From Rhizaria sp. SCN 62-66 (Eukaryota), in the NCBI GenBank assembly GCA_001724265.1, contig MEDY01000026.1:62001-125833 (forward strand): DNA of 63,833 nt. The letters are read 5' to 3'. This document shows positions 3,435 to 55,745 of the stretch, piece by piece. The translations under genes and the position numbers were made by a program. The notes under the pieces are model-generated. The model was not told where the DNA came from, ran no database searches, and saw only the letters and a list, made by a program, of their open reading frames with translations. Every line of letters starts with the position of its first letter. The first letter of the stretch is position 1.

Positions 3435-4435
3435 ATGCTTGGCATGCGCTGCGCCGCGCCGCTGCGGGCGTCTGTTGGCTCTTCCTTCGGTGCTCTCTCG
3501 TCGCTCCTGACCACCTCCCGCGTCGCCCCTGCTGTCCCTGCCGCTTCCACGGTTGCTGCCGTGCCTGCGCGTACTTACCTGGGCCTTATTTCTGGCCCCA
3601 TGACGCTCGGCAACCTTGCCGACGTGCCCGGCGCCCGCAAGATCGCCAAGCGTCTCGGCCGTGGCCGCGCCTCTGGTCTGGGCAAGACTTCCGGCCGTGG
3701 TCAGAAGGGTCAGGGCGCTCGCTCGGGTCTCCGCTCGCTCACGCGTTACGAAGGTGGCCAAACCATGCTTTGGCGCCGCTCCCCGAAGCACGGCTTCAAG
3801 AACATCAACCGCAAGGAGCTGGACGTCGTCAACGTCGACAATCTTGTCAAGTTCATCTCTGCTGGCCGCATTGACGCCTCCAAGACCATCACGATGAAGC
3901 ACCTCGTCGACTCTGGCCTTGTCTCGTCCGTGCGCCACGGCATCAAGCTCTGCGGCCGCGACGCCTCTATGGTGGCCCGTCTGCCTGTCCCTATCAACAT
4001 CGAGGTCACCCACTCCACTGCCCTCGCCCGCGACGCCATCCAGGTACGTTAGCTTCACCGCGATATATCTCAACGTAGTCAGATTCCATGCGATAATGTA
4101 TTTTGTATTGAATTAACAGTTGCCCTAGTTCACGCTTATGTGCAACGTTGTATCTCTCGTCTCTTATCGTCTTCTCGACATGTCGCCGCTTTTTTTGCTT
4201 GTTCGTTTCATTCTCGCAGGAGATGGGCGGCTCTGTCAAGTTCGTCTACTACTCCCGTCTCGCCTTCCACGAGCTCCTCAACCCCGGCTCCCGTCTCTTC
4301 GTTCCCGGCCCGTCCGTCCCGCCCCCGAACAAGACGCTCCGCTATGAGCACCAGCTCTGCGGCAAGCGCGACGAGGAGAAGGCCCAGGAGCTCCGTCTCG
4401 CCCGCATCGTCCGCAAGATCCGTGTCCGCAAGTAA
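3435..4435 (+). CDS. MRPL15: Mitochondrial ribosomal protein uL15m; exons 3435-4043, 4220-4435
   Basis: KRLGRGRASGLGKTSGRGQKGQGAR..EGGQT..PKHGF uL15 motif and an Arg/Ser/Ala-rich, acid-free presequence. Intron gtacgt..cag 4044-4219. Stop TAA. Confidence 0.92.
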
Positions 4436-26572: not shown

Positions 26573-26916
26573 ATGCGTTGAAAAATATACAAATACAGCG
26601 TTTATTTCATAGAACGTGTTTGTTTAGCAAACTTATCGTGTTGAATTTGAAACTCACCACGAACGCGTATTTGCACTCCGTCGCTGGAGGGACCAGGCGA
26701 GGGGGTTTGCGAGACTTGCGCACCCAGGCTCTCACGGATACTGGCGTCGATAGTTAAGAATCTGTTTAATTTCCCAGTTAATTTCGTCACTAACATACCT
26801 ATTTCAGTTTAATTTGTCGCTCATCACCACGTCTTTCCCTTCCATTTTTCAATCCGATTTTCACGCCTTCCCACTACCCTCCTTCCTTGCGTTTTGTGCG
26901 CACGCAGTCGCTTACG

Positions 26917-32724: not shown

Positions 32725-33536
32725 ATGCGAAGCCGCGTAAGCCGAGTATTGTCTCTTTTGTCTTGCTCTTTGTTTTATCTTTTTGTTTCATTTCTTTGTA
32801 TCTGTTTTTCTCCCGATATATATCAGCAACTTGTCTTTTCTCTATCCAGTGATAGTTTCTACTACAATAGCCGATTAGTATTCTTTTCACGCGTTTTTAT
32901 GGTCGCGTTTTTTTCTTCAATCTAATGACTTATGTGATGATTCTTTCACATGCTCTAGTTCTAATCCTGTATGCCAAAAAAATGTGTTACGCAGTGTGTT
33001 ACACAGTTTAAGTATTCAAATATGTTTATGCAATGCGTTGTTTTGTCCCCAATATCTTTAATGTTGTGTTACCACGTACACGCCGAACTAGACAACGAAC
33101 ATACACACATGTACTTGTGCATAATTGAGAACTTTTGGGCTGAGAATCATAAGTGCCTTTCCGGTGTTGCCGTGAGTGTAGTGAGTGTATGACTCATAGT
33201 CGCGAGCTAATGGTGTTGAGCTTGCCTATTGGCCGCCTGTTTGTCACTCTCCAGCCGCTATCCAGCTTACGCCAGAGCAGTTTCCTGGTTATTTACTGGT
33301 TCCTACTAGTACTAGGTGACACGGATGTATACGTCGACGAAATAAGTTTCTGCAATGTGTATTCTCATGTTCAAAACCCTACGTTCAAACGTACTGAGCT
33401 GTTTGCGCTTGCTTCCACTGGTATTCAATTGCAATACAAAACCAAGTAACACCCCTTCCTAAAAATAAAATCACACCACGTGAGTTAATTAAACTACTGT
33501 AAAAAACTATTGTAACAAAACGTGATAATACTTACA

Positions 33537-36500
33537 TCACCGACACTGCCGGGTTTGTTTGCGCTGTTTTTCCAGCACGTACCACGCCACAAGCAGTGAC
33601 TGCTGCACAATCTTGCGCAGCATCACAGCGACCCACCGCTCCATCTCCACCGCGGGCCCCATCGCAAGATTCTTAAGATACTCCAGCCGCCACGAAACCC
33701 ACTCCTAGCTCCTGAGCGCGCGCAATGCCAGTCCCGTGTTGGAGTTGCGCTCAGCCGGGCCATACGTGCTGCTCACGGTGAAGGTGTCATCGCCGCGGTG
33801 CAGGCTCAGCGCGCTGTCGGGGTCGCGCCGCGCCGCGCGCAGGGCCGCGACGACCGCGCTGCGGGAGTCGAGCGTGACTTCGCTGCCGTCGGACGCGAGC
33901 ACCGCGGCGGGCGGCAGCGACAGGTCGTGCGCGGCGGCGGAGGACGACAACGACGAGGACGACGCGGAGGAAACGTGGAATGATGCGTCGGCCGCGCGAC
34001 GAGCGGAGAAGATGACGCACTCGAGCCACGAGGGCGGGTGGATCTCCTCGTCGTCGGAGCCGATCTCACCGCTGCTATGACCGCGGCCGGCGCTGTGACA
34101 GCGACCGCGACGGCGACGCCGGCAACGGCTGTGGCCGAGGCTCTGCCCGAGGGAACTGGGCACGCGCGCCATGACGTGCGCAATATCATGCGGCGTCAAC
34201 CCTTGTGACGCGAGCGTCTGCAGCACAACTGTGGCGACAACGTAGCCCAGCGCAGAGCCGGCGTCGCAGTGTTTGTCCACCATCTCGGCCACGTGCTCGA
34301 ACGGGTTCAACCGCAGCAGGTAGAACGTGGACAGGTCAGACAGCGGGACACGGACGCCCGGGTGCGAGAGCCACTTCCAGTGCTCGATGCTGTTGCCGCT
34401 GAGGTCGAACACAGACGGCAGCGCTAGTGCGTGGTCGATCGGGATCACCTCCACGGTCGGATCTTTGACCGTCGCAGTGCGCGAGACGAGCATGTTGCCT
34501 TCGTTGCGGTCCAGGTTCAGGATGCGGAAGTCGAGCAGCGCAATGCGGTGCATGCATTCGATCGATCCGACCATGCGGTCACCAAACTCCTCCTGGTTTT
34601 CGCGGAAACGGTGGAAAGAGAAGATGCTTACACCGCCGGCGGGGCCCGCACGCTTGACACCCTCAACGCGTGTCTCTGGCACGCCAGCGAACCGCTCACA
34701 GTCGAGGTAATACGCCAGAAGCTCGTTCGACGCGCTGTCACAGCTGCGCAGCATGGGACGCTCTTTGTTGCGCTGTGGCGGGAACACGATGACGTGTGGC
34801 CGCAACGGCGCCCCCGCCGCCAGCGTCGCGGAGGCCGTCGCTGCGTGTTGCGAGCTGATCCCGTTCGCTGCCACAGAAGCGCCGCTGTTGGCGCTGTTTG
34901 CGGCGGCGGCGGCGGCGGCGCCGGACATGTAGACGCTCGCACTGGCGCTGGCGCTCGCGGTGGGCTGCCCGGGCCGCAGCGGCGGCAGACCCAGAGACGT
35001 GACAGACCGTCCCAGCATTGGCGACGCAAGCGGGACGCCGCCAACACCGCCAACGCCAGCGCCAATGCTGGTATACGCAGCAGCGAGCGCGTCGCCGCCA
35101 CCGTAACTGTGACTATGTCCGTGAGTTTGGCCGTGGTTTTGGCCGGGCGCCAGCGTGACTGTCGGCGTGACAGCGGGCTCGTTTGAGGCGACCGGGCAGT
35201 CGGTCACGTCCTCAACCGTCACTGTGGACAGAGCGAGGCCGGAGATCGCAGACGACGACGCCAACGGCGCGAGCGCGGACAGCGACACGGACGGGCGCGG
35301 CGGCGTGCCAGTGGATAGCCGCTGCATGCACTGCTGCTGTTGTTGCTGTTCGTACTGGTACTGTGCCTCGGCCGCAGTATTGCTCGCGGCGGCGGCATAC
35401 CGTTGCCGCGCAAGATGCCCAGACACAAACGAGTCCAGCACCTCGCTGCTCTCCTTGCCCGTGACGCCGCCGCTCGCCCTCCCAGCGCCCACGGCTCCAC
35501 CGCTGCGCGCCGCCGCGGCAGTGGCGCTGGGGGCGAAGGCGCTGGCACCGGGCCGCGCCCACGCCATGCCGTCGTGCCGCGGGGGCGTGTCAAGCACCAC
35601 CGACACCGGCGCAGGCACAGGCACAGGCGCGTCCGCCGCGGACCGAGCACCGCCGCCAGCGGTCGCAGTGGAGCCGCGGTGCGCCGCGTGCAGTCCGCGA
35701 TGCTGCACTGCACTGGTGGCGGCGATGGCGTGGTCGCTGGTACTGCCCGCCTCGCCGTCGAGCCCGGTCGCGGCGGACTCGGAACCGCTCTCGACCTCGG
35801 CCGCCGCGGTCGACAGCACAGTGCGCGACGCCGCAACGTGCGCGCGCTGGCTCAAGTGAGCGTTGTCGTTCGCGGCGGAAGATGGCAGTGATGATGGCAG
35901 GGATGATGACGCGGACGGGGACGGAGCGGCGATCGGCGCGGGCGGCGGCAGCGTGGATACCCCACCGTGCGCAGTGTTGTTAACGCGACGATGTAGATGG
36001 CCCGGCGTTGCAGAGTGGCGCGGTGTCGCCGCCGGGCTCCCACCTGTCTGCACCGTGTTGCTCCCCGCAACAGCGCTCATGAGGATCGGCGCGATGTGTG
36101 TCAGCGAGCGGTGCACTGTGGGGACGGAGCTCGTCGACCGCACGTGCGACAACGCGGGCTGCATCACCGGCACAACGCTGTTGGCGGCGTCAGATGACAC
36201 GTGCCTGACCGCGCTAGCAGCGTCAGCGGCCGGAAGATATGGGTGGTACTGGTGATGACCGGAGAACGAGCGCGCGTGCATATGCGTGCGTTGCTGTTGC
36301 TGATGCAGCTGTTGCTGCTGCAACTGCAACTGCTGCTGCTCTTGCTGCATCAGCATCACTTCCTCGGTCGCGCGCTCTGCCGCGATATACGGCATGTGCT
36401 TCATCTCGAGGAACTTGGCGTCGTCGCACACCACGCGCACCGCAATGGACTGCTGCTGCGACGCGTCGGCTCCCAGCCCGAGGCCGCCCGCCGCAGAGGC

Positions 36501-39500
36501 GGGGTCAGTGCCCGTCGACGATGTCGATCCCGACGCAGACGCGGACGCGGACGCAGAGAAGGGGGCGAACGCACCCGCCACGCCGGCCGCGGGCGGCGTG
36601 AGCGAAACCAAAGGAGACTGCGAACGGCTCAGGTTGCGGCTACGACCGTGTTGAGACTGCATTTGCGTCTGCGTGTGCGTGTGCGTATGCGGTGCGGACT
36701 GGTAAGACATCGACGCGGTGGGACGCATCGGAGCAAAGAACACTGAACCACCAGAGGATTGACTTCTGCTGCCTGTGACGGCAGCCGGTGCAAACACCAT
36801 GTCGTCATCCTCGTCGCAGTCAGCGGTATAGTTCGCAGCGGCGGCGGCGGCGGCCGTGGTGTATTGCGCGGTGACCGTCGAGTCACCAGTCGCATTCACA
36901 GTCTCTGTCAGCGTCGCTGAAGTCACCCCTGGCGCTGACACCGCAGCAGCTGCACTCGCGTTCACTGCAGCAGAGGCGGGGGAGGTGCTCACAGCCACCG
37001 TGTTGCCGCCGCGAGTGCCCTCCATAACGCCGTATGAACCCGTGCGGTCAAGCGTAGTCAGCGCTGAGCCAAACGCACCGCCGGCAAGCGGAGTCCTGCG
37101 GCCGTGCTTCGGGGGCCGTCCGCCGGCGCTGCCGAAGCTGCCAGCGGAGGCAGGCGCGGAGGGTTGTTCAGGGCCGAAGGATCGCGTGCGATACAACTGC
37201 TGTTGTTGTTGCTGCTGCTGCTGTTGCTGTTGCTGCTGAGACTGCTGCTGCTGCTGTACCTGCACTTGTGTCACCGTACTGTAGACACTACCAGCAGGAA
37301 GACCTTTAATCAAGTCGCTCTTGGCGATGACGAAGTTCAGGGAGTTGCTTTGCCGCTGCACGGCGCCGGCGGTGAACGATGCCCCCGCGCCGTGCGCGAT
37401 AAGCGCGGCCATGCCGGCGGTGCCCGAGTGGGCACCCGTGCCCGCGGGCGCCGCGAGCACCGCTGACGACGCGCGCGACAGCGAGGCCGGGACGAGAGCG
37501 CTCCTACTGTTGGTCAGAACTGTCGTCGTCGTCGGCGCAGCCGCTGTGTGAGCCCGAGCGCCGCTACTACCGCTGCCGTCGGTAAGCGCAAGCGTCGGCG
37601 ACCGCGTCCGCAGCAGAAGCGCACCACTGTTGTTGCCGCCGCCGCCGCCGCCGCCGTGAGTCGCGCTCACGCTCTTGGCGAACGTGTCAGACAACGCATT
37701 GTTGCCGCTCTTGCGCACGTACGCGACGCCGTGCGCGTCTTTAATCTTGTGCGGAGCGGACGTGCCTTCGAGAGCGCCCTCCTCAACGTATTGCTCGAGC
37801 AACGGCACGGGGGCGGCAAACGCAGCGGGTGCCATGGGCAAGCCCGTGGTGAGGAAGAGCGTTGAGGACGAGTTCGGCAGCGCATCGAACATGATGCCAC
37901 CGGTGAAACCGCTGCTGCCGTTGAGGCTGGCCGTCGTCGTAAGCGTCAGCGTTGCCGCAGCGTTCATGGGAGGGTTGTTGGAGGTGTGAGGCGCTGACGC
38001 TGGCATCTGTGTGGCGTAATGCGGCACGTGAACTAGACCACGCCGCGTCGATTCGTGATGCGCGACTGTCACTGAAGCGCCAACGAGAGACGACGCAGAA
38101 GCAGACGCCGGCAATGTCGGAGCATTGTCCGCGTTGCTGTCAGCAGTGTTAAGGTCTTCGTCGTCTTCATCGCTGTCATCGTCCTCGTCTTCGTCTTCAT
38201 CTTCGTCATCATCGTCATCGTCGTCGTCGCCGTCGTTGCGTTCAGGGTCGCGGAGGCGGCCGCGCGGTGTGTCAGGACTCATGGGCACAGGTGCCGACGC
38301 CACAACACCAAGCGCCGCACCCGTCGTCGTTCCCGCGAGTGTGAACGATTCATCCGTGGCGACTGACACACCTAGAGACGCCAGAACCGGGGTCACCGCA
38401 TTCGACCCAGCCGCGGTTTCTGCAGCCAAAAGGCCTGAATTGCGACTTGTACTAACTTTGTCCTTATCAGCGGCGGGGACGGGCGAGCCAAGCGCGGTCA
38501 ACGCGTTCGAGGCCGTGGCTGTGGCAGGCACTCGTAGTGGCTTGGTCGGGAACGAGTATTCTTCGCAGACACGCATGCATTCGTTGGTGATGGTGATTGT
38601 GCGGCGCGACACGCTCTCGTACCTTCTATTCTTGCGGGCGCTATTCGACAGCACATGATTGCCTAGCTCCGACACTAGCGGCGCGTGTCCAGTCGCGGGC
38701 GCCGACGACGCAGACGGAGGCAAGGGCTGTGGGCCAGCGCTGTGAGCGACCTCCGACGACTTGGCTTCGCTGGTGCCGTTGCCATCGCTGTTGCTGCCTG
38801 TGAGTCCGTTGCTGGCCCAGCCAGAAACAGCGCTGCCGTTGACGAGCGCAGACGAGTCAGCGAGACCTGCGCCGCTACCGCCGCTGGCTGCGCGCTTGCG
38901 CAGCTTCCTGCTAAGAGACCGCCCAGAGGTTTTGCAGTTCGCACCGTTGACTGGACCGCCAGAGCGTCCCGTTGACAGCACAGTCTCCATCGTCAGCGTG
39001 ATACTCTTAAACGGCGACTGCTCACCTTGCTGCATGCGCGCGGCATGAGTCTGCACGTTTTGCGCGAACACCTCCTGCATCGTGTTCGAGACCGCAGTCG
39101 CTGACACGGAAGGCTGGGCCAGACTGGCGGACGTTAAGACCGGGACGTGGGCCAGAGAACCGTGCCGCTGCGCAGGAGTCAGGACGGACGCAGTCATCGC
39201 AGCCGCAGACATCGAGGCGCGCGACTGGGACTGCGCCTGCATGCCACCGCCGCTCACAGCGTTGCCTGAAGCGCCGACGGAAACCGATACAAGGTCAAGA
39301 GGCTTCCGCATGCGCAGTGCGCTCTGCAACGACCGCTGCGGCGACGCACGCGGGTCCGCGCCGTTACTGCCAAAGGTGCTGTTGTTGAAGCTGCCGCTGC
39401 TGCTGCTGTAGAACTGGTTGTTGTGCTGAAGCAGCGCCTGAGGCGGGGGCGGCGGGGGCAGCGTCGCTTCCGGTGAAACGGGGAAAGTGACCGTGGGCGA

Positions 39501-42500
39501 GGTCACACGTTCCGGACTCGTGACCGTGAGCACGTTGAGGCTGACTGCGACGCCACTAGCGGGGCCCATGGCCACGGGACGCGGCAGCGCGGTCACGGAG
39601 CCAGCGTCCGTGTCCGTATCAGTATCCACAGTCGCGCTGGCGATAGCTGCGACAAACGGGTGCGTACTGGAACGCGTCGCAGTCGCACACGGGGGCTCAA
39701 TCATGCGTGCCGCGGCACCGCTGTTGCTACCGCCGCTGGTGGCGCTCGGCCCTGCAGCGAGCCCGGTGCGCTGCAGTGGCGCCAACGAGTCGTCCTCAAC
39801 CGCAACGGCCACCGCGGCGTCACCGTCAATGACCACAGTGGCTGCGTCTGACGCTTGCGGAGACGGGGACCGCGTGTTCGCCTGCGTTTGCGGCTGAAGG
39901 TGAGTATGATGCTGAGCCTGACTCTGCGTCTGCGTCTGCGTCTGCGAGTGCGTGCGCGACAGAGACTGTGGTGAGATTAGCCCGCCGAAGAAGTCACCTA
40001 TCTTTGTGGCGACAGCCGCGACCGTCGCAACGGCACTCGTGGCAAGGCCAACGCTGCTGCTGCTGCTATTGGTCCGAGCCAGATCGCCCGGACTTGGTGA
40101 CTTCACGCCGCCGAGCGTGTTGTTGACATCGAACGAAAACACAGCAGAGCCCGACGCCGACGCAAAGGCCGAGACGTCCGCAGCACTGGCAGATGACGAT
40201 GCAGAGAAAGAAGCGTCAGGAGAGTGGTCAGCCGTGTTAAAAGCGCTGCTGAGCCCGCGTTGGCGCTGAATTGAGGTAGGTGCAGCCGGAAAACTGCTGC
40301 GCATCGACAGCCTGCTACCGTGCTGACTCCCAGCGCTTGCGGTCGCGTTGCTTTCACGCGGTGACAACATGAAGCCGTGTCCACTGGCCATCGAAGTCGC
40401 AGGGACATCACTCAGCCCGAGTCCCCCAGTCGCAGTGGCAGGCGCGATCGCAGTGGCAGCATCGCCGGTGTTGATTGTGACTGCGGGCAGAGAGTCGCCG
40501 AGTGTGTGCGTGAGCGAGTCTGTCCCGTCGCAGCTGTCGCCCATCGTAGCGCTTAGCACCGGCGCAGCCGCCACAGCCGCAACAGGCGCACCATACTCAC
40601 GACCGCCGTACACCACTGGGGTGCCTGAGATGGTGAAGAGAGTGGCACTGTTGCTGTTGAGGTCGATACTATTGTTGTGGCTCGAGCTCGCCCCGATGCT
40701 GCTACTACTGGCGCTGCTGCGGCCGCTGTGGCTACGTTCAACGGCGGCCGCGAGCGACGTCACCGCACAGTCGCCGTCGCCGTCGCCGTCGCCGTCACCG
40801 GTCTGCCGCACTTGCTTTGTTGCCTGCGCAGTTGCGGCCACGGTGATGGGCGAGAGCACCGCGCCCCACGCAGACCCTGACCGGGCCTCATTTTCCGCAG
40901 TATTTGCGCTGGCGTTGGCAGCACTTGCGGAGGCCGAGACGATGGCGTTGGCAAGCGTGGTACGAGTGCGCGTGATCTGACCGGTGGCGCGGCCGAGAGC
41001 GCCGGAATGCGTGCCAGTAAGTGCCTGCGGGGACAACAGCGCAGTGGGCGCTGGCGGAGACTGTGGCTGTGAGGTCTGTGACTGAGAAGACTGTGTACGG
41101 TTGAGCAGGATGGGCTGCTGTGCATTGAGAATGCTCTGTGACACCGCATTGTCACCACCAAAGCCCGTATTCACACTCAGGTCCGCGGTCACGGCGCTGC
41201 TGCTGTTGATGCCGTGCGCCGCGTGGCTCAACGGCAATATCGCAGCAATGCCTGCAGTAGGGGCGCCGGCGCCAGTGAACGCGAACTGCGTCGAAGGCAT
41301 CGTGCGCGCGTTGTCAAACGCGGCGTCACTGAGCAACGCGTGCGAAACATCAACTGCTAGCGGAACACTGGCGTCAATGTCATCACTCTTGTTGTTGTAC
41401 GGCTTGCTATGAGCGGTGTCGGAGTTGTGGCGATGACTCCTTGCGTCGACCGCATCTGAGGAGAGCGACTGCGACACTGACTGGGCTTCAGAGACAGATG
41501 ACAACGAATAAGGCGAATCCTGCTGCTGCTGCTGCTGCTGAGGCATTGAAAATGTCGCGCTTACAACGCGACTGCCTCCGCCGGCCATCGCAGCGGTCAC
41601 ATCAGCGGCGCGCGCCAGACGCTGCTCGAGCGCGATCTCTCGCTTCGTCTGCTTAGACTGCTTCAGACTCGCACCTACAGCCGGCTTAGCGTTGCTAACA
41701 GCGGCACACGCGGGAGCCGGGGCGGTGGAGACAGCTGCTGAAGCAGACGGGCGCGCGAAAGAGCGCGCGAAGCTTGAATCTGTCGTTTGCACCGCGAGCT
41801 CGATGCTGAAGCCCGACGCAGCGGCGCTGATTGCGGCGCTGCTGCCGTCGCCGTCACCGGTGAGACGGGAGAGAAACGAGCGCTGCACCGCGTCGCCGCT
41901 GTCGGCTGCGGGCGTCGTGAGGTCAATGTACTGGGCCGCTCCCCCGCTGCCGTCTCCGTCGCTGGGGCTGCGGGCTGATGCGTTGCAGTAGTCACTGTCA
42001 CTGCTGATGGCATTGTTGTTGCTTTCGCTGGTGCTGAGTTGAATGAGGTGCGCATTAGACGAGTCAGCGCCGGTGTAGATGAAGTCGCACACTCCTTCGC
42101 TCTCATCACTCTGATCAACAAAATGACTGCTGCTTGCCGAGTTGTTCTGCGCAAAGCTGACAAACGCGGGCACAAAACCGTTTGCACCCATGTTCACGCT
42201 GGGCATATGACCGTGAGCGGCGGCATCCGCGGTATCCGCATAAACAAAAGCTCCATCAGGCGATGCACTGTACAGGTCGCCGTACAGCGCGCCAGAGCCC
42301 TCCGCCGCGTATCCACGCATCGCATCGCGGCTGAGGCCGTGGGCGTGACTGTGCCCGTTGTGTGCGGGAAAGGGATACATCGCAGCGCCGTTGTGGCTGT
42401 GCATGAAGTCGCCGTGGCCGTGGTAGGGACCGTGGTACTCAGTGTGGCCGAACTGAGACACACCCGACGCGGTCGCACTCAGCGACGGCTGCGGCGAGTG

Positions 42501-45113
42501 ATGCGACATTGTCGTGTCAAAATCGATCACGTCGTCGTCGTCGTCGTCGTCGTCATCATCGTCGTCCTCGTCGTCGTCGCCGTCGCGCGCAGTCGGCCCG
42601 GCAGCAGTCATGACAATCGCAACCGAGCCCATGTCGTTCGCCATACTAGTATGGCTAGAAGAAGCGTTCGCAGAGGCGGCAGCGTTGTGAGGAGTCACGA
42701 CATTGCTCGCATCTGTATCATCGTCGACAAGGTCGTCGCTGTCGTTCGTGGTGCCACGTTCATCGTCGGTCTCGTCGCCACCCTTGTCCACGCCAGAGTC
42801 TAAGGGGCTGTCTAAGGGGGTCGCCGCGGCGCCGTCTAAGGGCCGCGTGATGGAAAGACTGCTCAGTGCTAAGGAGTCACAGCTACTGTCGGCGAGCCTG
42901 CTGAAAGACTGTGAGCTGCTCAGCAAATCATCCTCCAACTCCTTCTTGATATGGTCATTGTTATTGCTGCTGTTGCGTTTGTTACTGCTCTGCGTCGTAT
43001 TGGCGGTGTTGGCTCTGACGAGAGTGAAGTTCGCGCTGGAGCCGCGACCGAGGCTCTGCGCAGTCAACGAGGGCTGCACTCCAAGCGAGCCGGTGACGCT
43101 GGGCGGCGACACATGAGACAGAGTCGTGCTCGCGTTCTCTCCACACCCGACACCGACCGTGCTCGCACTGGCGCTCGTGAGGCTGGTGTCGGACACGGTG
43201 TCGCTCTCAGCCGCGGCGGCGTCATCGCTCTTCAGACGAGTCGTCACCGTGGCCTCTGTGCGGACGTCGCTCTTGCCAGCGACACTGTGGAGTCGTTTGC
43301 TGCCGCCGAGAGTATCGGTGTTGAGTGAGATCACGGATGACTCGGCGAAACTGCTCGACGGCGTGTTCATCAGCGTCGTCTGCTCACCTGCGCTCACATC
43401 CACGTTCGAGTGGGCATTCACACTCTTGCTGTTGTTGTTATTATTGCTGTCAGAGTTAGACCGCGAGTACTCGTTCGGCGCCCATGTGACAGTCTTTCCA
43501 GCTAACCCAGTCACGATCCCAGAGCCAGCACCAGAGCCTGAGTCACTGCCAGGGTCAATCCCATGTGCAATGAAGCCAGGGCCAGAGTCAGGGCCAGGGC
43601 CAGGGCCAGATCCGGAGAATGAACCAAAGCTAGGTGCGCTGCTGCTGGCCGTAGGGCGCTGAGGCTGTGCGAACCGCGGTTGCGCTGACGGCCGTTGCAG
43701 CGGCAGAATCGTCGCGTTGGCGGATGACACGGTGGGGGAACGCAGGGGAAGTCTGAGTCCGCCGCCATTCGCAGTCGCACTGTCGATGCCACTGGTGGCG
43801 CCAACGTCTAAACCGCCGCCAAGCTTGCTGTGGTGGCCGCGGTGACCGCCGTGGCCGCTATGGCCGCGCAGACTGTGAGTCCGAGAGACAGCGGAGTGAC
43901 CGTGAGAAGAGTGACCGTGAGCGCCCGATCCCACACCACTGCCCGGCACCACACCCGCGGCCCCCACAACTGTCGGCCCCGCAGCCACTATGCCCAGGGT
44001 TCCGCCCACGGGCCCCATGCCCACAGTCATGCCCACGGTCATCGGCGTGGCGATGGTGGCACCGGCAAGCTCTCGCGGCAGCACAAGCACACGGAGCTGG
44101 TCAGACAGTGTTTTCACCACAGATTCCGCTTCGACCCGCGCGCGAGTGACCGTGAGCAGCGAACCTGCGTGGCCGCACTTAGCGCGCACATGGAGCGCTT
44201 CGCTGCGTTTCCTGTTCTCAGACTCGATGCTGGTCCGCATTGCGGCGGTGTAGCCGTCACTGTCGACCCTGTCGTCGTCGTCGGGGCCGTCTTTGTCGTC
44301 TTCGTCGTCGTCATGGCTCCTGTCGCTGGCACTGCTATCACTGCTCTCGCTCAGAGTATCGCTGCAGCTGCCGCTGGTGCCGTTCTTGTCGTGATTGCTT
44401 TTGTTCTCAGCGGCTTCACGGCAGTCGGCTTCCGCGGCGGCGGCGGGCCTGGTGCGCTGGTACTCCTCGCACAGATACGGCGTCCCCGCGGCCGGTACGC
44501 TGTACCGCGCAACCGCCCGCGCAAGACAGCGGCCGCCCAACAGCGCATGCAAGCACCGCAGTGGTGAGCCATTCGCGGTGTCGCACTTCCCGCAGCAGCA
44601 CGCTTGGTCGTCCTTCTTGTTTTCATCGACACACTCCGTGGCCTCTGCGTCGGCGTCTTTGCGCGCAGCACGGAGCGCCTGCTTGAACTCCTTCGTGCCG
44701 TGTCCGTGCCGGGCTTGCAGCGCGAGCACAGTAGTCTGGGCCCGCCACAGCGCGCGCGGCAACCGGAACGGGATCGCGCGCGCCTGCGCGCTCAGAGCTG
44801 CAGCCTCGGCCGCGGCGCGCGCGGCGTCGGCTGCAGATTGCGCGAGCTGGCCGGGGTTTGCACCCGGTCCGCCCCCGTCAGCAACGGCTCCAGGGCGGCG
44901 CTGGCTCGGAGGGATATAGCGACGTTTACACGGCGCCGCGGCAGCGAGCAGTGCCACAACCGGCTCCACAGGTACTGTGCCGGCGGAGGAGGACGATGTC
45001 GCCGACGATGAAGAGGATGTGGAAGAATACGAGTGAGTTGTTGGGGAGGGAGCCGAGGCGGCCGGGTTTGGCGCCGGCTCGGGGCCGATCAGGCCCGGCG
45101 CGGACGGCAACAT
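33537..45113 (-). CDS. Giant (~3850 aa) low-complexity protein with a C-terminal type-II (gamma-like) PI4-kinase domain; reads through TAG 33705-33707 to TGA 33537-33539
   Basis: NELLAYYLD..FAGVPET, IALLDFRILNLDRNEGNMLV, VIPIDHALALP, WKWLSHP. Likely ATG 45113 (MLPSAPG); the frame is open up to ATG 45452. After the TAG, 55 coding-like codons follow (EWVSWRLEYLKNLAMGPAVEMERWVAVMLRKIVQQSLLVAWYVLEKQRKQTRQCR). Confidence 0.8.
37195..37256 (-). repeat. CAG/CAA polyglutamine microsatellite in the PI4K-like gene
   Basis: (tgc/tgt)n on the + strand; encodes QQQQQSQQQQQQQQQQQQQQ. Confidence 0.85.
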
Positions 45114-45740
45114 GCGTTGCACAGACACGCCGCTAGGGAAACTCGCCGCGCAGAGTGAGTGGTGCTTGGGGAGCCGTGCGCGGGGCCAGAGGCCGGGGGG
45201 AAGGCGGGATGGAGTTCGAGAGGTCTCTTTTCTGTGAGGAAGTAGATTATTGTCTCGAAGAGAGGAAGGAGAAGGTGGGATGGCAAACAAACTCTCAAAA
45301 GTGGTCCAAACGCACTTAGAGAATTTTCCCAGCCCCCTACGAAGTTTTAGAAGGATAACCGGGATCAGGTATGCGAGATAAGATGGACTGGTGGTGAGAT
45401 CGGAGTCCTTTCTCTCGCAACAAAGAAGGATATCGAGGCAATAACGCGACATATACGAGCAGATTTTTAGATAATTATATAATTAATGATATTAGTAGAA
45501 ATAACCCGGGGATTTCAGTCTTTAGTCGATCAAAGCGATCCCAGTGTGATGTTCTTAGTCACCTCAACTCTTCTTGGACCGGCATGTTTGTCTCACCCCC
45601 TCTGTTTCCGCTTAAACAGATATAGCCGATCATTAAAAATCGATTTCTGAGATATTATTCTGCGAATCAATACTATTTATGTATTTATTGTTTAATTCAT
45701 TAACATAATCTCGCTGAGGTTTGTATATCTTTCTGGATGC

Positions 45741-48700
45741 TCAATCGGATCCTCCACCACTGCCGCCTCGCAACAACTGTGTTATGAGGTCCATGCCTCC
45801 CAGCACGTCTTGATGTAGGTTCATCAGCGGAGACGTTCCCACGACCCCGCGCATCGCGTGTGTTGCACGTGCTGTACCCGCAACTTCTTTCTCTCCCCAC
45901 GTGCGCGCCGCAGCCACCGCTGCCGTCGCTGCCCTGCGCGCGCCCTCAGTGCTCGCGCCGTCATCATCGCAACTTCCAGCCAACGCTGCTGTAGTTGCAG
46001 CCGCGAGGTCGCGCTCCCACGCGTCAGCAGTTGCGCTGCGTGCCCCGCGCACCGCCACGGCCGCGCACAGACAGAGGTCCGCGTCGCAGCCGGGCGTTAC
46101 GACCCACCGCGCCTTAGCTTTGGACTTGCTCCTGGTCCGCGTCTCGCGTGCTCCAGCGCCCGCTGCCAGCCGCGCGGTGCTGCCGGTCACCAGCTGCGGT
46201 GACCAATCCGCCTGGACCGCCTCGAGGACCGTGAGCGCGGTCCGCAGCATTGCGACTGAGCGACGGCCAGGGGCGCTCTCAGCGCGCGCTGCGGCGGCCA
46301 CGGCTGCGGCGACGGCGTCGGCCTCCGCAACGGCTTTGGCATCATCCCCATCATCCGCGTCACTTTCAGCGCTGTCATCGTCGTCAACCATTGCGTTTGC
46401 GGCGGAGTTGCTGTTGTTGTGAATGCGGTCTGAGTCGCTAACGCGGTTGAGAGCCGGGTGTGGTGATGGGCCAGGGTCGCCTGCAGTTGTCCTGACTACA
46501 CTTACGGCATCCGCATCAACAGCGTTTGTTCCCCCGTTGCCTGGGCGTGGCCGCGTTGTGAGAGCAAACATTGATTTGTCTCTTTGGGGCCCGTGGCCGG
46601 CAACGCCTGTGTCATTGTTGTCCGCGACAGGAACGCGGCTCACAGTCACCGGCTCGCTTGTCAGTTGCGCCCAGTCTGTCCCTGCATCCGCACCTGCTGC
46701 GACGCCGTCGACATCAATCGTCGCACTGACAATGTCGCCATCTGCCATCACAATACCACCGCCGCCGATGCTTTTAGATGACGTGGCTGCTTCGAACCTC
46801 GCCGCCTCAGCCTCCGCTGCAGCCTCCGCGGCGACCGCAGCTGGGTCCTTCACGAGCTTGATCCCAGCACCAGGCCTGGCGGCGCGCCGCAGTCGCCCCA
46901 ACCGACGCGCAGTCTCTTCGCAGTGCCCGATAGCGGTGGCGATGCGTGCCACCGCTGCGGCCACGGTCACGCAGCCGCCGACGCCAGCCGAGACTTCTGG
47001 CACAGCGCGGAAAGTTAAACCGCGGTGTGTTAACACTGTTCCGCTGCGAGCTGCTGTTGTGGCGGGGTCATCTTGTGCAAGTGTGCGGCTGTTTGCGACG
47101 CTAGGTTGAGCGCAGAGAGACGAAGCCGTGAGCAAGAAAAGCGGCGCTGCGACGGGCCACCAGTGTGGGTACAGCTCGCCAGTGACCGTGACTAGCCTCA
47201 GTAGCTCAGAATCACGCTCGCTGGCTATATCCATATCAGCTGTTTGAGAGATTGCGGCAACTGTAGGATCACTCACAATGGTTTGCACTGGCGTTGGCGC
47301 AGTCGCAGCGACTTCTTGCGGCGTGAGATGAGGCAATAGACTCGAAAGCCACAAAGCTGCCAGTGCAAACTGCCCCCTCGAGAGCGCATACATGTCGTTG
47401 CTCTCTTCAGCGAGCGCTTGCCACTCGCTCTCTGCAGTAACACTTGCACTACCACTGCTCGTACGCGCAGTGAAAGCATCATGTGCTGCGTCCTCAGCGA
47501 GAGCCGCTGCTTCACCAGCTGCTCCCCATGCAGACAGCGACGTGCGGCTTAACTTCTGCACGACCTCTCCACTTTCGGCAACGTCGGCCTCTAGTGCCCT
47601 CCACCCGGCCGGTGCCGCAGCAGCGATTGGCAGCCACCCACGCACTGCGCACGCCGCATTGCGCGCGGCGTCTGTGCTGGCGTCAGCGAGTAAGAGCCTT
47701 GCGCGCACAAGAGATGCGAGCGATGAAAACACGCTGTAAGGAATGTACACTGCGTTTACGGAGGAGTCATTGTCAAAACAACCTTCCTTACTCTGGCCGC
47801 GAAGTGATTGCTCCGGTGGCACAGCGAAAACCACGGCTGGACATCCCGGAAGGCCTTGCTGTGTCAGTATGATCGATGCGTATCCCCACAAGGCGCTTTC
47901 GATTTCACTCGCAGCTCCACCGACAGTCGCAGCGCCTGTCCCGATGCCGCGGTTTGCGATACCACGCATAAATCCATCGCCAACGGTGAGCAGCCCGCCG
48001 TGTTCAAGAGCGCTGGCCTCGATCTTAACTTCTGCATCAACATCGCCACCACATAGCAGCACAGTGTGCAGTCGCAGGCCCGCTGGCGCAGCTGTTGGCG
48101 TTGCGCCGCTGACGCCGCTGAGCGCGCGCGCCGAACGTGATTTGTGCTTGTCTATGGCTCGCAACGTCTCTGCACGGCCGGCAATTGTGGTTGCGGTTGC
48201 CAAGGCTTCTTGCGTGATTGTCGTGAGGAGAGATGATTCCGGGTCACTTACGCCAGTGCCCGCACCGCGGCGTCCGATGCCAACGATGACTTCCTGCTTT
48301 TGACTCTCATTCTCCACATCGGTGTCTTCTTCTTCTCTGTCACGCGCAGTACGAGCGCGCTTTGTATTGTGAGAGCTTTGCTGAGCGGGTGGCTCCTTCA
48401 CAGTGAGTAACATGAGCGGCGGTGGTGCCGCAGCGTAACTATAGTTCATGATTTCGCTAACAACACGACGGTAATTCGTGTGAAACGCTGCTGTTAGCGC
48501 GGCGATCGAAGTCAGGCCGCGTTTCTCACGGTCACGCAACAGTCGTCGCTGAGCTTCGCGAGCTTCCCTCTGCTGGTGCACGCTCACAATGTTGCTCTTG
48601 TTTTCAGTCTCGGTGTTACCATCGTACTTCTCGTCGCTGGACTCTGCATGCAATGCAGCTGCCATTGCTGTCGTCGCAGCTGAATTGGCCTCTTCTTGAA

Positions 48701-51700
48701 CCAACAACCGTAGAAGTGCTGAGCCAAGGGACGCTAGAGTCAAGGCCCACAATGCAGGAGCTTTTTGTTCTATCTCAGATGATTGTGTTCTCTGCTTATT
48801 GAAATGGGGGAACGTGACGGTATCGACTGCATCAAGATACCTCTGCCCTCCGTGGCTGACACAATCGCAGGCAAACAACGCTGCGGCCGCCTGATCAGCA
48901 ACAGTGAGCTCATTCAGATCAGTGACACCGCTACCGTCATCGTCAATGACAGACGCGATCAGAGTGTGAGTATAACATTGCAACACACCCCAGGCGACGG
49001 CAACAGAAGCCTCACCCTGCCAACCCACTGGCCCACTGAAGCAGACTGAAGGCTCACTGAGGCCTGTCACTCGCACACGCGCCGCCACCGCAGCAGCATG
49101 GAGTAAGTCCATGTCTGCATCGGCTTTGTTCTGCGCTGCGGTTGCTAATGGTATCAGGCCGACAACGACGGCGAAGGTTAACGCCTTGCGCAGTCCAGCC
49201 TTGATCCACGCGTGATTTTGCTTACGTGGATCTGAGACTGCTGCTGTTTTATTTGCACTCAATGACGTTAAGGCGACTGAAGCAAGGTGTAACACGGATG
49301 TCACGACAGCGATTGGTTCTTGTAAGGACGTGTACGCGCTCGTCAGAGTGGACTGGAGTGTGATTCGATTTGCTGATAGTTCTTGTAGTGCAGCGGTTTG
49401 GTTTACTATCTCGTGGTTACACTCGCGCATGCGTTCATGAAGCGTGCTAATGTGGACATTGCTCTCTTCATGCGGCTGTGCCTTACTTTTTTCATTTGCA
49501 TGACTTTCCGTCACTCGCTGCTGCTATATCATTCTGATCTGCTACTTTAACTCCTCCTGTGATGCGCGCTGCTGCTCTAACTGCAGCGCTGTCGTTGCAG
49601 TTTTTACATCGGTCCGCTCGATCTCTACTGCGGTGCTTGCAAGCGTCTCCAAAGCAGAGTTTACCGCCATCAGTGAAGCCATGAGCGTTGACACCATCGC
49701 CGCGGGCGTCACTATCGGCACTGCTGTTGCACCTGCATCGACGCTCAACACAAGCGCGCGTATGGCATGGTTCACAAGCGCAACGTCACTTGCAACGATG
49801 GGGCACAATGCGATGTCGTCAACTTCGCCGCTCTCTTGCATGACACCAACACTCTCGGTAGGCACCCTGTCAGTCTAGGTCGATATTGCTGCATCAATGT
49901 GTCCGCACAGAGCCCACTGCCGTACATTACTACTGTGGGCCCACGACTGCGTCGAAACACCTGCTCTTTGCTCGACAAGTACGCTTGCCGCAGCACTCGC
50001 TCCGCCACCCAGCAAGCTTGCTCCGCGCCATGCTGCAGCGAGACAGCGTCGCAGTACAGGGCTCTGGGTTACAGCAATGGGCGCATTTGTGATGTCAACG
50101 TTGCGTGCGCGCCAAAGCCAGTGCCACAGCGCAATATGCTTTGGGGCAAAAACGACTGGGACTGTCGGGCTTAGTAGGGCGTGTGCGAGTTGTGACTGCA
50201 GCTTGTGGAACGTCTCTAGTATTGCGCTTAGAGGGGCTGTATCGATGAGCGAAGGTAAAATCAACTCCTCCTCCTCTTCTGTGCCTTGTTGAGAGACGCT
50301 ACCGAGTGCGCTGGCACTGCGAATCTTGTCACAGAGTATTGACATAATGTTATCCTCACAAAACGTCGTGAAAAGTGCAATGCTGTTAAGGCAGCGCAAG
50401 GAGAGTGACTCGAACGCAGAGAATACGTGGGTGTCCAATATAGCTGCGACAGCGGAAGCAGCAAGCACAAACCGCGGAAGGGCTAGTATTGTCTCTGCCG
50501 ACATACTCTCTGGCTGTGTTGAGAGCAGCGTATGTGTTGTTGTGTCTGCCGAAAGCTGCGTGACTGTGAGCGCTAGTACCGATGCTAACGCGTCGTCAAT
50601 CCCAACTCCTGCTGGCAATGGCAACAACAGCATTTCTGGTTCCATCAATACCGCTCGTGCCTCCATCACAGCGTCACTCTCGGCCGCTGCAGCGGAGCTA
50701 CTTCCTCTACGACGTACTGGAGAGTGTGGCGGCGTGAGCTGGTACTCCTCAACACCAACACTGACATTCGCGCGATCTGCGTAATTTGCCGTGTTATTCG
50801 CGTTGCGTCGTGAACCAAGACCACGCCGTAGTGGCGACTGCCAGCCTCCAGCTCTCGGGGAGACCAGCCCTTCAGTCGCTCGAGATTGCGACTGACCAAG
50901 ACTGTCCAGGAGTTTGTGCGCTTCCAATTTGCGCTGACGTTGATCCTCAACTTCTACGGTGTCAGTTGTCGCTGTTGCGACTGACGCTAGCAGTTCAGCA
51001 GGCGTGAAGATAACACCGCTGCGCACAAGCTCTGTGAGGACAATCGCCGTCGTACTTGTGGTTCCTTTTTGAGGGCGCGATGGTAGCTGACGTTCGCGCA
51101 GTTCTACAAGCGATCGCGGGCAACCTTGCAGCGAGCCTACAGAGTCTACAAGAGTTCGCTTCTGTTGATCGTGGATTGAGCGTCCACTATAGTTATCGAC
51201 AACATTCGTGATGATGTACACACCTGCTTCAAGCGTTTGCTCAGCGACATTTTTGATATCATTTTTGAAGATGTTGTCAAGCGTTGCAATCTTGTGAAAG
51301 CCTAACCGTGTGATGATCTCAACATGCTCGCAGAGCAACGGAACATATGCCTTAAGCCTTGAAAGTAACTGCTTGCCAGTACTGCGACCAGCAACCCACT
51401 CGCTTTTAACATGCTCGCATAATAGCACTGTAGCTTTTAGCCTTACAAGGAAACTTCGAAGCGGGGTAAGCACCGTGGCGGCATCATTCACTGTCGCGAC
51501 TATGTCGAGTCCAGGCGAAAGTTCAGGGACAGCTGCGGACCGGAGCTTAGCAAGTGCCGCTCGTTCAGCGCTGCCAAACTCAAGAACGGATAGCGCAAAT
51601 GGAGCAGCTGCTGTGCGCAAAGAACAGTTGCTGACAAGTGTGCTACGCTGTGACACAGTTGAACGTTGATCAGCTTGGTAAGGAGTGGCCCAGAGCCGGG

Positions 51701-54700
51701 ACCCATCAAGTAGCGCACACGCTAGTGTGACCCACGGCGACAGTGTAACATCTCGTGTTGTTGTTTCAGTTAGCATGGCAGATGACCCAGCCTGTGAGGC
51801 GACAGCGGAACGCCCCAGTGCATTGCGCAATCGCAGTTGAAGTAAACCGTCAATGCCTTCTTCCCCGAATGTAACACTTGCCGACTTTGCCGACGCAGAC
51901 TCGCATCGGCGTGTATGTTTTGCAAGCAGCCGACTTGCAGTTGCAAACAGACTGCCACCGGCTGCTGTCAAGGAAGCATCAGTTTCTGCCGTGTCGCGCA
52001 CTACTGTGTAATCATGTAGAGATCCACCGATAGCTCCACCCTGCATTGCGACTGCCCTCGAGATCAAGATCAGTTGTGCTGCTACAGGAATGTTGCCGGC
52101 GCCTGCACCCACGCGTCGTATCTGCCAGCCAGCGCCAGCTCCGGTAGTAGCCAGCCACAACGCAGACGCAGACTAGACATCAGCCCATGCTGCTGTACCG
52201 ACGAATGCCGACTGGGCGACAGCAATTGCAGCAGCTACAGCTGATTGTGCAAGTGCTACGCGACGGTCAGCGATGCCCTTTGTGTCACCGGTCGCAGAGT
52301 CGCCCCAACGCGCAACCGGCGCCGCCGTGGCGGGTACTGCTGTGACACCAGCGCCAGCAGTTGCAACGGGCCAAGCCTGAGTCGCCGCGATTGACACAAC
52401 TCCGGATGCGGATGTAGAGCCCCATGACGCATATTTCATGTCTTCAATGCGACTTAGCATGCTTCCGAGTGTGGTTACGAGCAGCGAGTGGATGAGTATC
52501 AGCGATAAACCACTCAAAGTGACACGCACAATCTCATTATGAGCTGGACTCATATCTTCATTGACGTCGATGTGCTGTGTCCGAGAGGTGAGAGCTGTAA
52601 GAGCGCGGGCCACCGCGAGTGAGCAGGCAACAGTGAGGCCCCTGCGAAGCCCGCGTGGCAACGCAAGAGCAGCACCTGCTGGTGCCCCGTCACCTCCAGC
52701 GTTTGATGCCGTGGTATTTGGACGTGGAAATGGTGGTGTCGGGGCCGGCGACAGAGCGTTGAGAGCGCACGCATCACAGATAGCGTTATATGCATGAGCG
52801 AGCGCAGTGTTCAGTTTAGCATCACCTGCTGCTGCGGTAAGCATAATAAAATGGTTTAGCGGCCGCATGAGCTCCGCTGTGGTTGCAGCCGCATGTGCGG
52901 TTGTCAGACCGCCACGAACTGATGCAGCCGTACTAATCGCGACGGCGCAGTCTGTGTACTGCGTGAGCACTGAGTACAACGCAGACGCTAGTTGTGTCTC
53001 AGTCACCGCGACTTGCACTGCACCAGTGATACCAGTGACTCCTGTCGCAGCGGACGTGAGGCTGACCGTGGGGATAGCAGCGACGGGCGCCACTAACCCG
53101 AGTCCTGCAGCTGCTGCACCAACAACGTGAGACTCGATGTCAGCACTGGCCAGCCCAGCTGCCGCAGCGAGCGCAGGCGTGATCATGGTACTGTCACCTT
53201 GTACTGCAGGAACAGCCGTCGCCATCGTGGTGTTTGCCCAATGCGAAAGCACTGTTGGTCCAGACGCTGCAGCGAACGCGACAGCGGCACAACTTGGGGT
53301 GCGCAGCATCAGTGCCGTCAGGAGGTCAAGTGTTAGCCCGGCGTAGCACCGAGAATGTGGCACTGCCGATAACGGCCCGATCAACCTTGTCGCAATAAAA
53401 CGGGCGATAATACTGCTGAGAGCGGCATCGTTATCATCGGCTGTGACAGGGTGGTTGCCTGTTGTCAATATACGGAGTAGCTCACCGCGGACAGAGTGCA
53501 CGGGAAGCATCGTATTTTCCCCTTCACTATTAAGGCCCTGCCTGACTGCATCAGCTGCCATGGCGTTGGCGCGCTCAATCGCTGCGCTGACGCCAACGCC
53601 GGCGGCCGTGACCCACGATCGCGCGACAGCATCTGTGGCCATTAAGTCAAGCAAGAGTCCCGGCGCAGGCACGGACACGGCTGCTGTTTGCATCCACTTC
53701 AATGCTGCTGTTGCTGATGCTGGAATCGGGCTAGCGTTAGTTTCGTCGGTATCTTGCTCAGACATTGTTGTCAAGGCTTTGAGCAGAGGACTGTCAGCGT
53801 TCGGCCACCGCACGCGCTCGCGCATCCATGCTAGTGCAGGTGCCTGTGGCAGAGTCAATACATGACTTTGCCACTCGTCAGGCTTTTCGATGCTGGTGAT
53901 GAGACTACGAGAGACGCCGCCGAGCGCTGGTACCGTGAGCTGTCCGCGTCTTGGCACAAGCCACCGAGGCCACGCGACCTGTCCCGCCGCTGCGAGTGCT
54001 GAGAGCGCCGTCGCCACCGTTAACAGCGCTGCGCCAGCAACAGAACCAGCGGTGCCCGCATTGTTGTGCGCAGCTGGGCAATGTACCGTAATGGCCGAGA
54101 GCAAGATTATGTCCAAGTCTGGCACGCACGCTGCAATCGCCTCGACCACTGTCTCGGACGCGTCGACTGTGGAGATCAACAGCGATAATGCATTATGATC
54201 AGCATCAGTTGCGCTGTCGGACATAGCTGTTGTGGCGCGACCGGTGCTGCTAACTGTGGGCACCCACGACAGCGGATGCGTTGCAGGCCGCAGACGCAGT
54301 AAGCACGCCAGCAAGTCAGCGCCGATCAGAACGGTCGCCGCATCAACTGACGCTACGCAAGTCTGTACTACTGAGAGCATTATCGTCAAACTAGTGGGGC
54401 TTAATAGAGCGATTGCGTTGGTCAATGGTTGCGGTGCCGCCCGCGGCAGCACAGGCACCACACTGTCAGCGGCTTCGACCAGCATGTCGTTGCTGTCTAC
54501 CGTCTCTTCTTCAGCCAGGACGACGGCCGCTACCGCTGTTGCACTGACGGCGACTGGAGCCTCGGCCACAGTGGTGACGTTCTTCTTCTTTTTGGTGCTT
54601 GCCGTTGCCACTGCGCTCTGCGCTGCGTTCGCCGCGGCAGCTGCAGCGGCTGCAGATGCAAATGCAGAGCACGCGAGCCTTCCATTTGGGGTTGCTGTCG

Positions 54701-55076
54701 CGATGAAACTGGTCGTCTCGCGCATGAACTGCCACAGCAACCGCAGAGGCGCACACGAAGCGACTGTGAGCGCGTCTTGCCGTGAGTCCAGCGGTGGGAT
54801 CTGCTCGAGGAACGTGTCGGTCATGTAGCCAACGCCGAGTCCAATCTCGGCCCAATCTGTCATGCAACGGCCCTGTGTTGCTGCCACCGCAGCAATTGCT
54901 GCCTCAAACCAGAACAAAGCGCTCGATGACGGGTCATATACAGATGCCGCCGCGGTGACGGCAGCCGGTAAGCTTTGGTGTGCGGAGAGCATCATGTTGA
55001 GGTACGACGCGATGAGGTCCTCGAACGCTGACAGCGATGCGAACCACTCGGCCCGTGTAATACCCTTTATCATCAT
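45741..55076 (-). CDS. Single ~3110-aa protein of unknown function (helical-rich with a central coiled coil) with four in-frame TAG codons (52173-5, 49875-7, 49542-4, 49524-6)
   Basis: Track ORFs 52173-55076, 49875-52160, 49542-49865 and 45741-49514 share one frame (9336 nt = 3112 codons) and are separated only by TAG; terminal stop TGA. Possible extra 5' exon ending at 55169 (gtacgt donor 55168, aag acceptor 55065). Confidence 0.8.
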
Positions 55077-55745
55077 AACAAGGATGCATGGATGTCATTA
55101 AGTGAGTTATCTTGGCGTCTGAGTAAGCTGATATGTTCAAGTCCAAACAATATTACTTGAAGACGTACACGGAATGCAAGACAGATTGACTTAAAGAGAG
55201 GCACTGACTGGCCGAGCGGATGCGTCTGAATCATTGTGACACACTGCAGGCCACAATGTGCACAGAACATGTTACGGCTCAGAGATATCTGAAAACACAT
55301 ACGTGGGTCTTGCGAGAAGCGGTTACACTCAAGCTTAAACATTTTGCTCAATGTTGACGCTTGGACAAAGCCAATCGCGACTTGAAGCCTTGACTCTGAA
55401 TACGTGACTACTTTTCTACGGACTATTCGCGAAGGCGGAGGATACAATATGCGCATTATTTAGTTTAATTTTCTATAAATACAATAATTATTCTAATTTT
55501 AAATTCAAACGGGTAATTCCTGCGATAGGTCGACTTAGAGTTGACCTACATCAACTCGACTTTAGGTAGCCGAAAAGTAGTTGGTTTGTTGTTGTTGATT
55601 TGTATTGGTTTGTAATTTTGTTTGTTTTTAATGGTTTTCGTTTCTGATTTTTGTTTGTTTTTTAAGCGATTTTTTCGTTTCTTTTTAGTTTTGTTGGTTT
55701 CGTTTCTCTTCGTCTTTCTTACAAGCTCTGCTGTCTGTCAAGGCG

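Follow-up and report, generated by a model that had tools for sequence, protein, structure and literature searches.

In-frame TAG codons in two protist genes suggest that UAG may be read as an amino acid

To our knowledge, changes of the nuclear genetic code are rare, and only a few protist lineages are known in which such a change concerns UAG alone. Such UAG-only reassignments include the rhizarian exLh, in which UAG encodes Leu, and Iotanema spirale, in which it encodes Gln; the passages of Panek et al. (2017; PMC5304391) on these organisms give 384 in-frame UAGs in 71 genes for exLh. Several independent UAG reassignments are described for phyllopharyngean ciliates in the corresponding passages of McGowan et al. 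(2024; PMC11687900), and a nonstop code in which each of the three stop codons has been reassigned is described for Blastocrithidia in the pertinent passages of PMC12153298. Here we report on a 63,833-nucleotide stretch of DNA (positions 62,001 to 125,833 of the forward strand of contig MEDY01000026.1, assembly GCA_001724265.1, Rhizaria sp. SCN 62-66), referred to as the window, in which a gene for a type II phosphatidylinositol 4-kinase (PI4K)-like protein continues past an in-frame TAG and a neighbouring gene contains four more. We propose, with a probability of roughly 0.7, that this organism decodes UAG as an amino acid, either after a reassignment of the codon or through efficient suppression.

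The window resembles the described systems in several respects. Both exLh and Iotanema spirale combine in-frame UAG with genes that end in UAA or UGA, and UAG is scarcer in some of their gene classes, as far as the same passages of PMC5304391 go; both features recur in the window. Compared with the exLh count given there, the window has only 5 in-frame TAGs in ~17,000 codons. In phyllopharyngean ciliates, according to the passages of PMC11687900, UAG is sense and UAA and UGA are stops, as would be the case here, and the basis of inference is the same, namely in-frame UAGs together with the absence of UAG at conserved C-termini. Our case differs in that it rests on one 64-kb window. The GC-rich coding DNA and the long introns (119-251 nt) with GTACG donors are features that we take not to be ciliate-like. 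With Blastocrithidia, as portrayed in the passages of PMC12153298, the window shares protist nuclear genes that are intact despite in-frame stop codons. In contrast to the code described there, TGA and TAA behave as terminators in the window (12/12) and never occur in frame.

Coding sequence beyond the TAG

The minus-strand stop-to-stop frame of the PI4K-like gene spans 33705..45482 (3925 codons) and ends with ...TGLALRALRS-TAG at 33707-33705. In the same frame and on the same strand, 55 sense codons (EWVSWRLEYLKNLAMGPAVEMERWVAVMLRKIVQQSLLVAWYVLEKQRKQTRQCR, EWVSWR...RQCR) follow between the TAG and a TGA at 33539-33537; peptides belonging to this extension include EWVSWR... and NLAMGPAVEMER. 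The parts of the gene are as follows.

33708..45452, minus strand: upstream body encoding a very long low-complexity protein; first ATG at residue 11 of the open reading frame (ORF), next at residue 124, start not settled
34131..34805, minus strand: catalytic core resembling that of type II PI4-kinases (model residues 1-225), from Pfam, Foldseek and VIA-align
33705..33707, minus strand: in-frame TAG after ...RALRS; same TAG in the metagenome contig L001, opposite CGC (Arg) in the relative L003
33540..33704, minus strand: 55-codon extension, predicted helical, with coding-type GC, a BLASTP match to the relative P0001 and AlphaFold2 helices
33537..33539, minus strand: TGA, probable true terminator, followed by a fall in GC; the relative's TGA lies 3 codons earlier

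The last 422 residues were searched exhaustively with HMMER against 1.84 billion representatives, which gave 1257 matches at E<=0.001; 250 of these reached E<=1e-10 and a single one E<=1e-30. This closest match (P0001, 46% identity) is a metagenome protein from a cluster of 3, and it and its two cluster mates (P0151 and P0152) are encoded on metagenome contigs. All three align with the window protein collinearly and without a gap over the TAG, from the kinase core through ...TYGPAE... and the TAG to the end. With the extension alone, BLASTP against P0001 gave 18/50 identities (E=4e-8), and 18/51 positions were identical and 30 positive in a global alignment. The first-pass annotation had looked to conservation of the extension in relatives, and this one relative provides it: at 11 of the 18 identical residues the codons differ between relative and window, so that the conservation is at the protein level. 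The relative's DNA has CGC opposite the TAG, contains no in-frame TAG and ends its ORF with a TGA 3 codons before the window's TGA in the alignment. The C-terminus of the nearest relative is homologous to the extension and ends at the same point, so that the extension is ancestral coding sequence and not untranslated region.

The composition of the DNA follows the same boundaries. In windows of 150 nt, GC is 0.57 past the TAG and 0.34 past the TGA, and 0.31-0.45 past 11 listed TAA or TGA terminators of the window. By codon position, the extension has a GC of 0.65/0.35/0.73 and the gene body one of 0.63/0.58/0.72, which is coding-type periodicity. Two descriptions in the first-pass annotation, of a coding-like 55-codon extension from TAG to TGA and of a drop to AT-rich composition after the TGA, are thus borne out. 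A 55-codon open frame has a chance of ~0.10 at the extension's base composition and is weak evidence alone; the extension is more than a chance open frame because of its homology to P0001. The extension had also been called amphipathic-helix-like, which found no statistical support: the hydrophobic moment of its best 18 residues (0.51) was equalled in 633/2000 shuffles, although AlphaFold2 nonetheless predicts helices there.

When the 55-aa extension was compared by phmmer with 152 fetched family members, matches were confined to the P0001 cluster and its 3 members (E~3e-5). The tail is thus not shared across the family in general. No homologue was matched when the C-terminal region was compared with long proteins (2189-6967 aa), and a search of PDB sequences for the C-terminal 422 aa gave 0 matches at E<=0.01. 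Public protein records list the final 41 codons of the extension, counted from an ATG (33540-33662, minus strand), as a separate 41-aa protein (P0019), an outcome of gene calling under the standard code.

Under the standard code, the TAG might be a recent nonsense mutation that cut 55 residues from the protein and left the downstream sequence as an undecayed relic, with the neighbouring gene being a young pseudogene. The tail lies beyond the kinase core of the solved structures and its loss might be tolerated, and a nonsense change in this gene would most often yield TAG (0.59 of paths). Set against this, coding periodicity and GC are fully preserved in the extension, while the non-coding DNA of the window has a GC of 0.31-0.45. 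This explanation is taken up again below with the TAGs of the second gene.

The TAG codon in the genome

The TAG at 33707-33705 is real and exonic. Our metagenome scan produced 456 pattern matches; 123 of them were relatives, and 80 of the 123 were retained. One of the 80, an independent metagenome contig of 3643 nt (L001), corresponds to window positions 32862-36504 with 99.97% identity and carries the same TAG. The sole mismatch (1 in 3643 bases) is at 33522 in the 3′ flank. The TAG at 33707 is therefore common to at least two haplotypes, a further point against a recent truncation.

Five introns of the window were verified by continuity of reading frame and domains. They are 119-251 nt long with a GC of 0.31-0.43, and all five have AG/GTACG donors and T-rich 3′ ends.

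1741-1929, plus strand: intron of the WD40 gene
2115-2365, plus strand: intron of the WD40 gene
4044-4219: intron of the uL15m gene
27607-27806, plus strand: intron of the R3H exon
22706-22824, minus strand: intron of the protein-kinase gene

No AT-rich island was seen around 33707. An intron starting from a GTATG 58 nt upstream of the TAG was rejected, as splicing there would cost the protein its conserved YGPAE motif and change the reading frame. The earlier statement that this is the only apparent TAG terminator of the window holds, since the three other ORFs that first end at a TAG (4050, 27655 and 22708) have it inside verified introns. The count of genes in which TAG would be sense had to be lowered: the first-pass annotation had called the PI4K-like gene the third of them, and an exonic in-frame TAG was reproduced in two genes, the other interruptions being intronic.

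It is conceivable that the TAGs are artefacts or are removed at the RNA level, through a mistake in the assembly, a very small intron or editing of the U-to-C type. The organism does have introns, and the RNA run X7 had no cover in bins 48541-51208. Conversely, independent assemblies agree, no difference or indel was listed at any TAG across the 4 runs compared, and the relative aligns without a gap over 33707. We regard this explanation as very improbable, also in view of the intron candidate in the neighbouring gene discussed below.

A separate observation concerns position 33843, ~136 nt upstream of the TAG. Contigs of X4 and X7 (one study) match the window to ~33843 and then continue with at least 249 unlike letters, and X5 does likewise at 33849; this could be the junction of a variant or a chimera of the assembly.

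In-frame TAGs of the neighbouring gene, terminators and alternatives

The second gene with in-frame TAGs lies next to the PI4K-like gene on the same strand.

45741..55094, minus strand: orphan gene of 3117 codons, an open frame with four in-frame TAGs that ends with TGA 45743-45741
52173..52175, minus strand: in-frame TAG in ...AAWADV_SASALW..., unchanged in the X4 contig covering 50291-52601
49875..49877, minus strand: in-frame TAG in ...DAAIST_TDRVPT..., in the X4 contig 49137-50276 without differences
49542..49544, minus strand: in-frame TAG in ...QEELK_QIRMI..., in the same X4 contig without differences
49524..49526, minus strand: in-frame TAG in ...QIRMI_QQRVTE..., likewise in that contig without differences

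Over its 3117 codons this gene contains 0 TAA, 0 TGA and no frameshift, and the DNA past its TGA is AT-rich. All four TAGs recur in the X4 contigs, which come from another study; the two differences in the contig covering 50291-52601 are elsewhere. The gene has a GC at third codon positions (GC3) of 0.48-0.57 compared with 0.72-0.86 in its neighbours, and it stands in public records as three pieces. No Pfam domain was found in it, and a search for homologues of its residues 1560-2060 among shorter proteins gave 3 matches, all of them 100% identical pieces of the window. Since there are no homologues beyond the window's own pieces, the amino acid at the four TAGs cannot be inferred from them. 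The codons one step from TAG include those for Gln, Glu, Lys and Leu.

One splice-site candidate was found in this gene. A donor-like GTACGG occurs in frame at 49925, 48 nt upstream of the TAG at 49877, which would fit removal of that TAG by splicing. The corresponding in-frame introns of 51 nt or 402 nt were rejected, as their GC is 0.55, they lack a T-tract and no AG stands ahead of the donor. Furthermore, the segment has 0 TAA or TGA in frame 0 compared with 11 and 4 stops in the other frames. With this composition, no intron signals and an open frame 0, the segment is coding.

With introns accounted for, the window has 12 genuine terminators, of which 7 are TGA, 5 TAA and 0 TAG. The 12 do not include a TGA at 28275, which has a donor-like site before it and at which the R3H ORF probably does not end but runs on into the helicase gene. 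If TAG usually makes up 20-35% of stops, the probability of finding it at none of 12 terminators is 0.07-0.006.

These counts bear directly on a loss of function under the standard code. From codon usage, the probability that a random nonsense change yields TAG is 0.44 in the neighbouring gene and 0.59 in the PI4K-like gene, and that all five interruptions would be TAG is P=0.021. Four TAGs arising by random nonsense changes in the neighbouring gene would be accompanied by ~5.2 TAA or TGA, where 0 were seen (P=0.006). Moreover, a decaying pseudogene should also carry frameshifts, and there are none in the 3117 codons; the 0/12 TAG terminators likewise speak against the standard code with recent truncations. 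What agrees with such truncations is the scarcity of the TAGs and their clustering in a single orphan gene of weak codon bias. On balance, we consider a recent nonsense mutation unlikely.

The same five sites were compared with stop codon readthrough. Here the code would be standard with a leaky UAG, and programmed or context-dependent readthrough would yield short and C-terminally extended isoforms of the kinase-like protein. Known readthrough extensions are conserved and reach to a second stop. The window shares with them a conserved in-frame extension between a first and a second stop, which ends at the ancestral stop, and a C follows 2/5 of the TAGs. In contrast to programmed readthrough, there is no stimulatory context common to the sites (the next codons are GAG, TCT, ACT, CAG and CAG) and no significant RNA structure downstream (four stretches folded; z -1.33, +1.36, +1.04 and -0.80). 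Furthermore, the TAGs of the second gene lie deep inside it, and four such sites in series in 3117 codons would allow almost no full-length product unless decoding is efficient. TAG is also absent from all 12 terminators. Readthrough is thus, in our judgement, rather improbable.

Translation of UAG as an amino acid fits best, because the extension is ancestral coding sequence, the four TAGs of the neighbouring gene occur without TAA, TGA or frameshift, 0/12 terminators are TAG, and the TAGs recur in independent assemblies. On these grounds the proposal of the first-pass annotation that TAG is a sense codon finds support. UAG would be decoded either through a genome-wide stop-to-sense reassignment or by a very efficient natural suppressor. 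We infer a tRNA with the anticodon CUA and an eRF1 that would discriminate against UAG, while UAA and UGA would stay terminators. In the PI4K-like gene, the ribosome would read 55 codons beyond the TAG and stop at the TGA at 33539-33537, and the predicted product is a type II PI4-kinase-like protein with a conserved helical C-terminal tail.

Several observations weigh against this proposal. The extension is covered by one relative from a single organism, and it lies outside the known kinase fold, solved structures matching model residues 1 to ~225 only. The relative's Arg (CGC) opposite the TAG is at a variable linker position and two changes away from TAG, and is therefore uninformative on the decoded amino acid. 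The 12 terminators are a small sample. TAG is rare, with 5 in ~17,000 stop-to-stop codons, and 4/5 are in one orphan gene of weak codon bias (P(>=4)=0.014), an uneven clustering that could point to gene-specific decay. The few differences found in other samples are mostly non-synonymous (3/4 in the neighbouring gene, 2/2 in the body of the PI4K-like gene), so that neither gene is tightly constrained. Finally, the window contains 0 tRNA genes (ARAGORN) and 0 Rfam matches, and eRF1 is not encoded in the window.

The kinase-like protein, the organism and its code

A Pfam match to PF00454 (PI3_PI4_kinase) lies near the C-terminus of the PI4K-like protein, at 35.3 bits with a cut-off of 27.1. The last 422 residues were modelled with AlphaFold2 from a 91-sequence alignment, with a mean predicted local distance difference test score (pLDDT) of 69.8. 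Foldseek matched the model to PI4K II alpha and beta (E~1e-8). VIA-align superposed it on solved type II PI4Ks (PDB 4yc4, 9hhm and 4wtv) with Z 19-20 and root-mean-square deviations (rmsd) of 2.6-3.4 over 205-216 residues, with Z 20.3, rmsd 2.6 and 205 residues for PI4K II beta. The solved structures cover model residues 1 to ~225 only. Past this core the model continues with a linker of low confidence, after which helices are predicted at 356-379 and 384-421 (pLDDT 53-81); the extension corresponds to model residues 368-422. A place for the tail within the kinase fold was considered and dropped, as the structures stop at ~225 and, of the fetched family members, only the P0001 cluster has the tail.

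In the catalytic loop (region of window position 34500, model residues 99-104), the window protein has DRNEGN where the family has DRHxGN and the nearest relative DRNEDN. D99, R100 and N104 are invariant in the 91 sequences. Because the consensus His of DRHxGN is replaced by Asn, kinase activity is uncertain, and the domain may be a pseudokinase or have an altered catalytic loop. The protein thus shares with type II PI4Ks the PF00454 match and the kinase fold (model residues 1 to ~220). It differs from them in its length of ~3,900 residues with huge low-complexity regions, in the DRNEGN motif, and in a helical tail that it has in common with one metagenomic relative only.

DNA of the window was found in metagenomes from bioreactors, wastewater, activated sludge and microbial fuel cells. 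At least part of it is held by 14/16 listed runs, belonging to 10 studies; 3 of the 14 may be the source. The genome has spliceosomal introns and GC-rich exons set in AT-rich spacers. At its left end, a partial gene (3-593, minus strand) with OB-fold domains of Replication protein A runs off the window. The WD40 gene (Bub3/Rae1-like; 865-2648, plus strand) has two introns and ends with a TGA at 2646. The protein-kinase gene (18810-24151, minus strand) seems frameshifted in a naive ORF scan, which is explained by the 119-nt AT-rich intron 22706-22824 between HRDIKAANVFLQGDS and DIHVKLGDFG. An ORF with an R3H domain and one for a DHX36/YTHDC2-like DEAH helicase (26794-32724, plus strand) are probably exons of one gene. 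In this region the TGA at 28275 is preceded, at a distance of 15 nt, by a donor-like GTATG, and AT-rich islands at 28261-28461 and 28761-28941 have coding-like sequence between them.

The best homologue of the helicase is a metagenomic protein with 61% identity, and the other listed matches are mostly plant-named, with 27-47% identity over local segments. Look-ups in the ESM Atlas and PDB searches with Pan3 and with the helicase yielded no taxonomic placement. In the GTDB genome scan, a locus (L081, 6046-7153) on a 12,961-nt contig of an ‘uncultured Actinomycetota’ metagenome-assembled genome encodes a protein 29% identical to helicase residues 1-768. The locus may be a HrpA-like gene of a bacterium, or the contig may be eukaryotic and wrongly binned.

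Full-text literature searches found no report of UAG reassignment in a wastewater eukaryote, and an existing report is still possible. We put at even odds the more specific view that an uncultured, GC-rich, intron-poor eukaryote of wastewater and bioreactors, lacking close relatives among sequenced organisms, has undergone an early or ‘nearly unassigned’ UAG-only change of its nuclear code, with ~0.3 UAG per 1000 codons, in a lineage without a known case. The window would then join the known UAG-only reassignments and differ from them in its very low UAG frequency and in stemming from a GC-rich organism. In practical terms, standard-code gene callers already split genes of this organism, as seen for P0019 and for the neighbouring gene in its three pieces. 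If UAG is indeed translated, this abundant wastewater eukaryote would offer a natural intermediate with scarce TAG for studying the capture of a stop codon, in particular the order in which tRNA(CUA) is gained, eRF1 changes and TAG terminators are lost.

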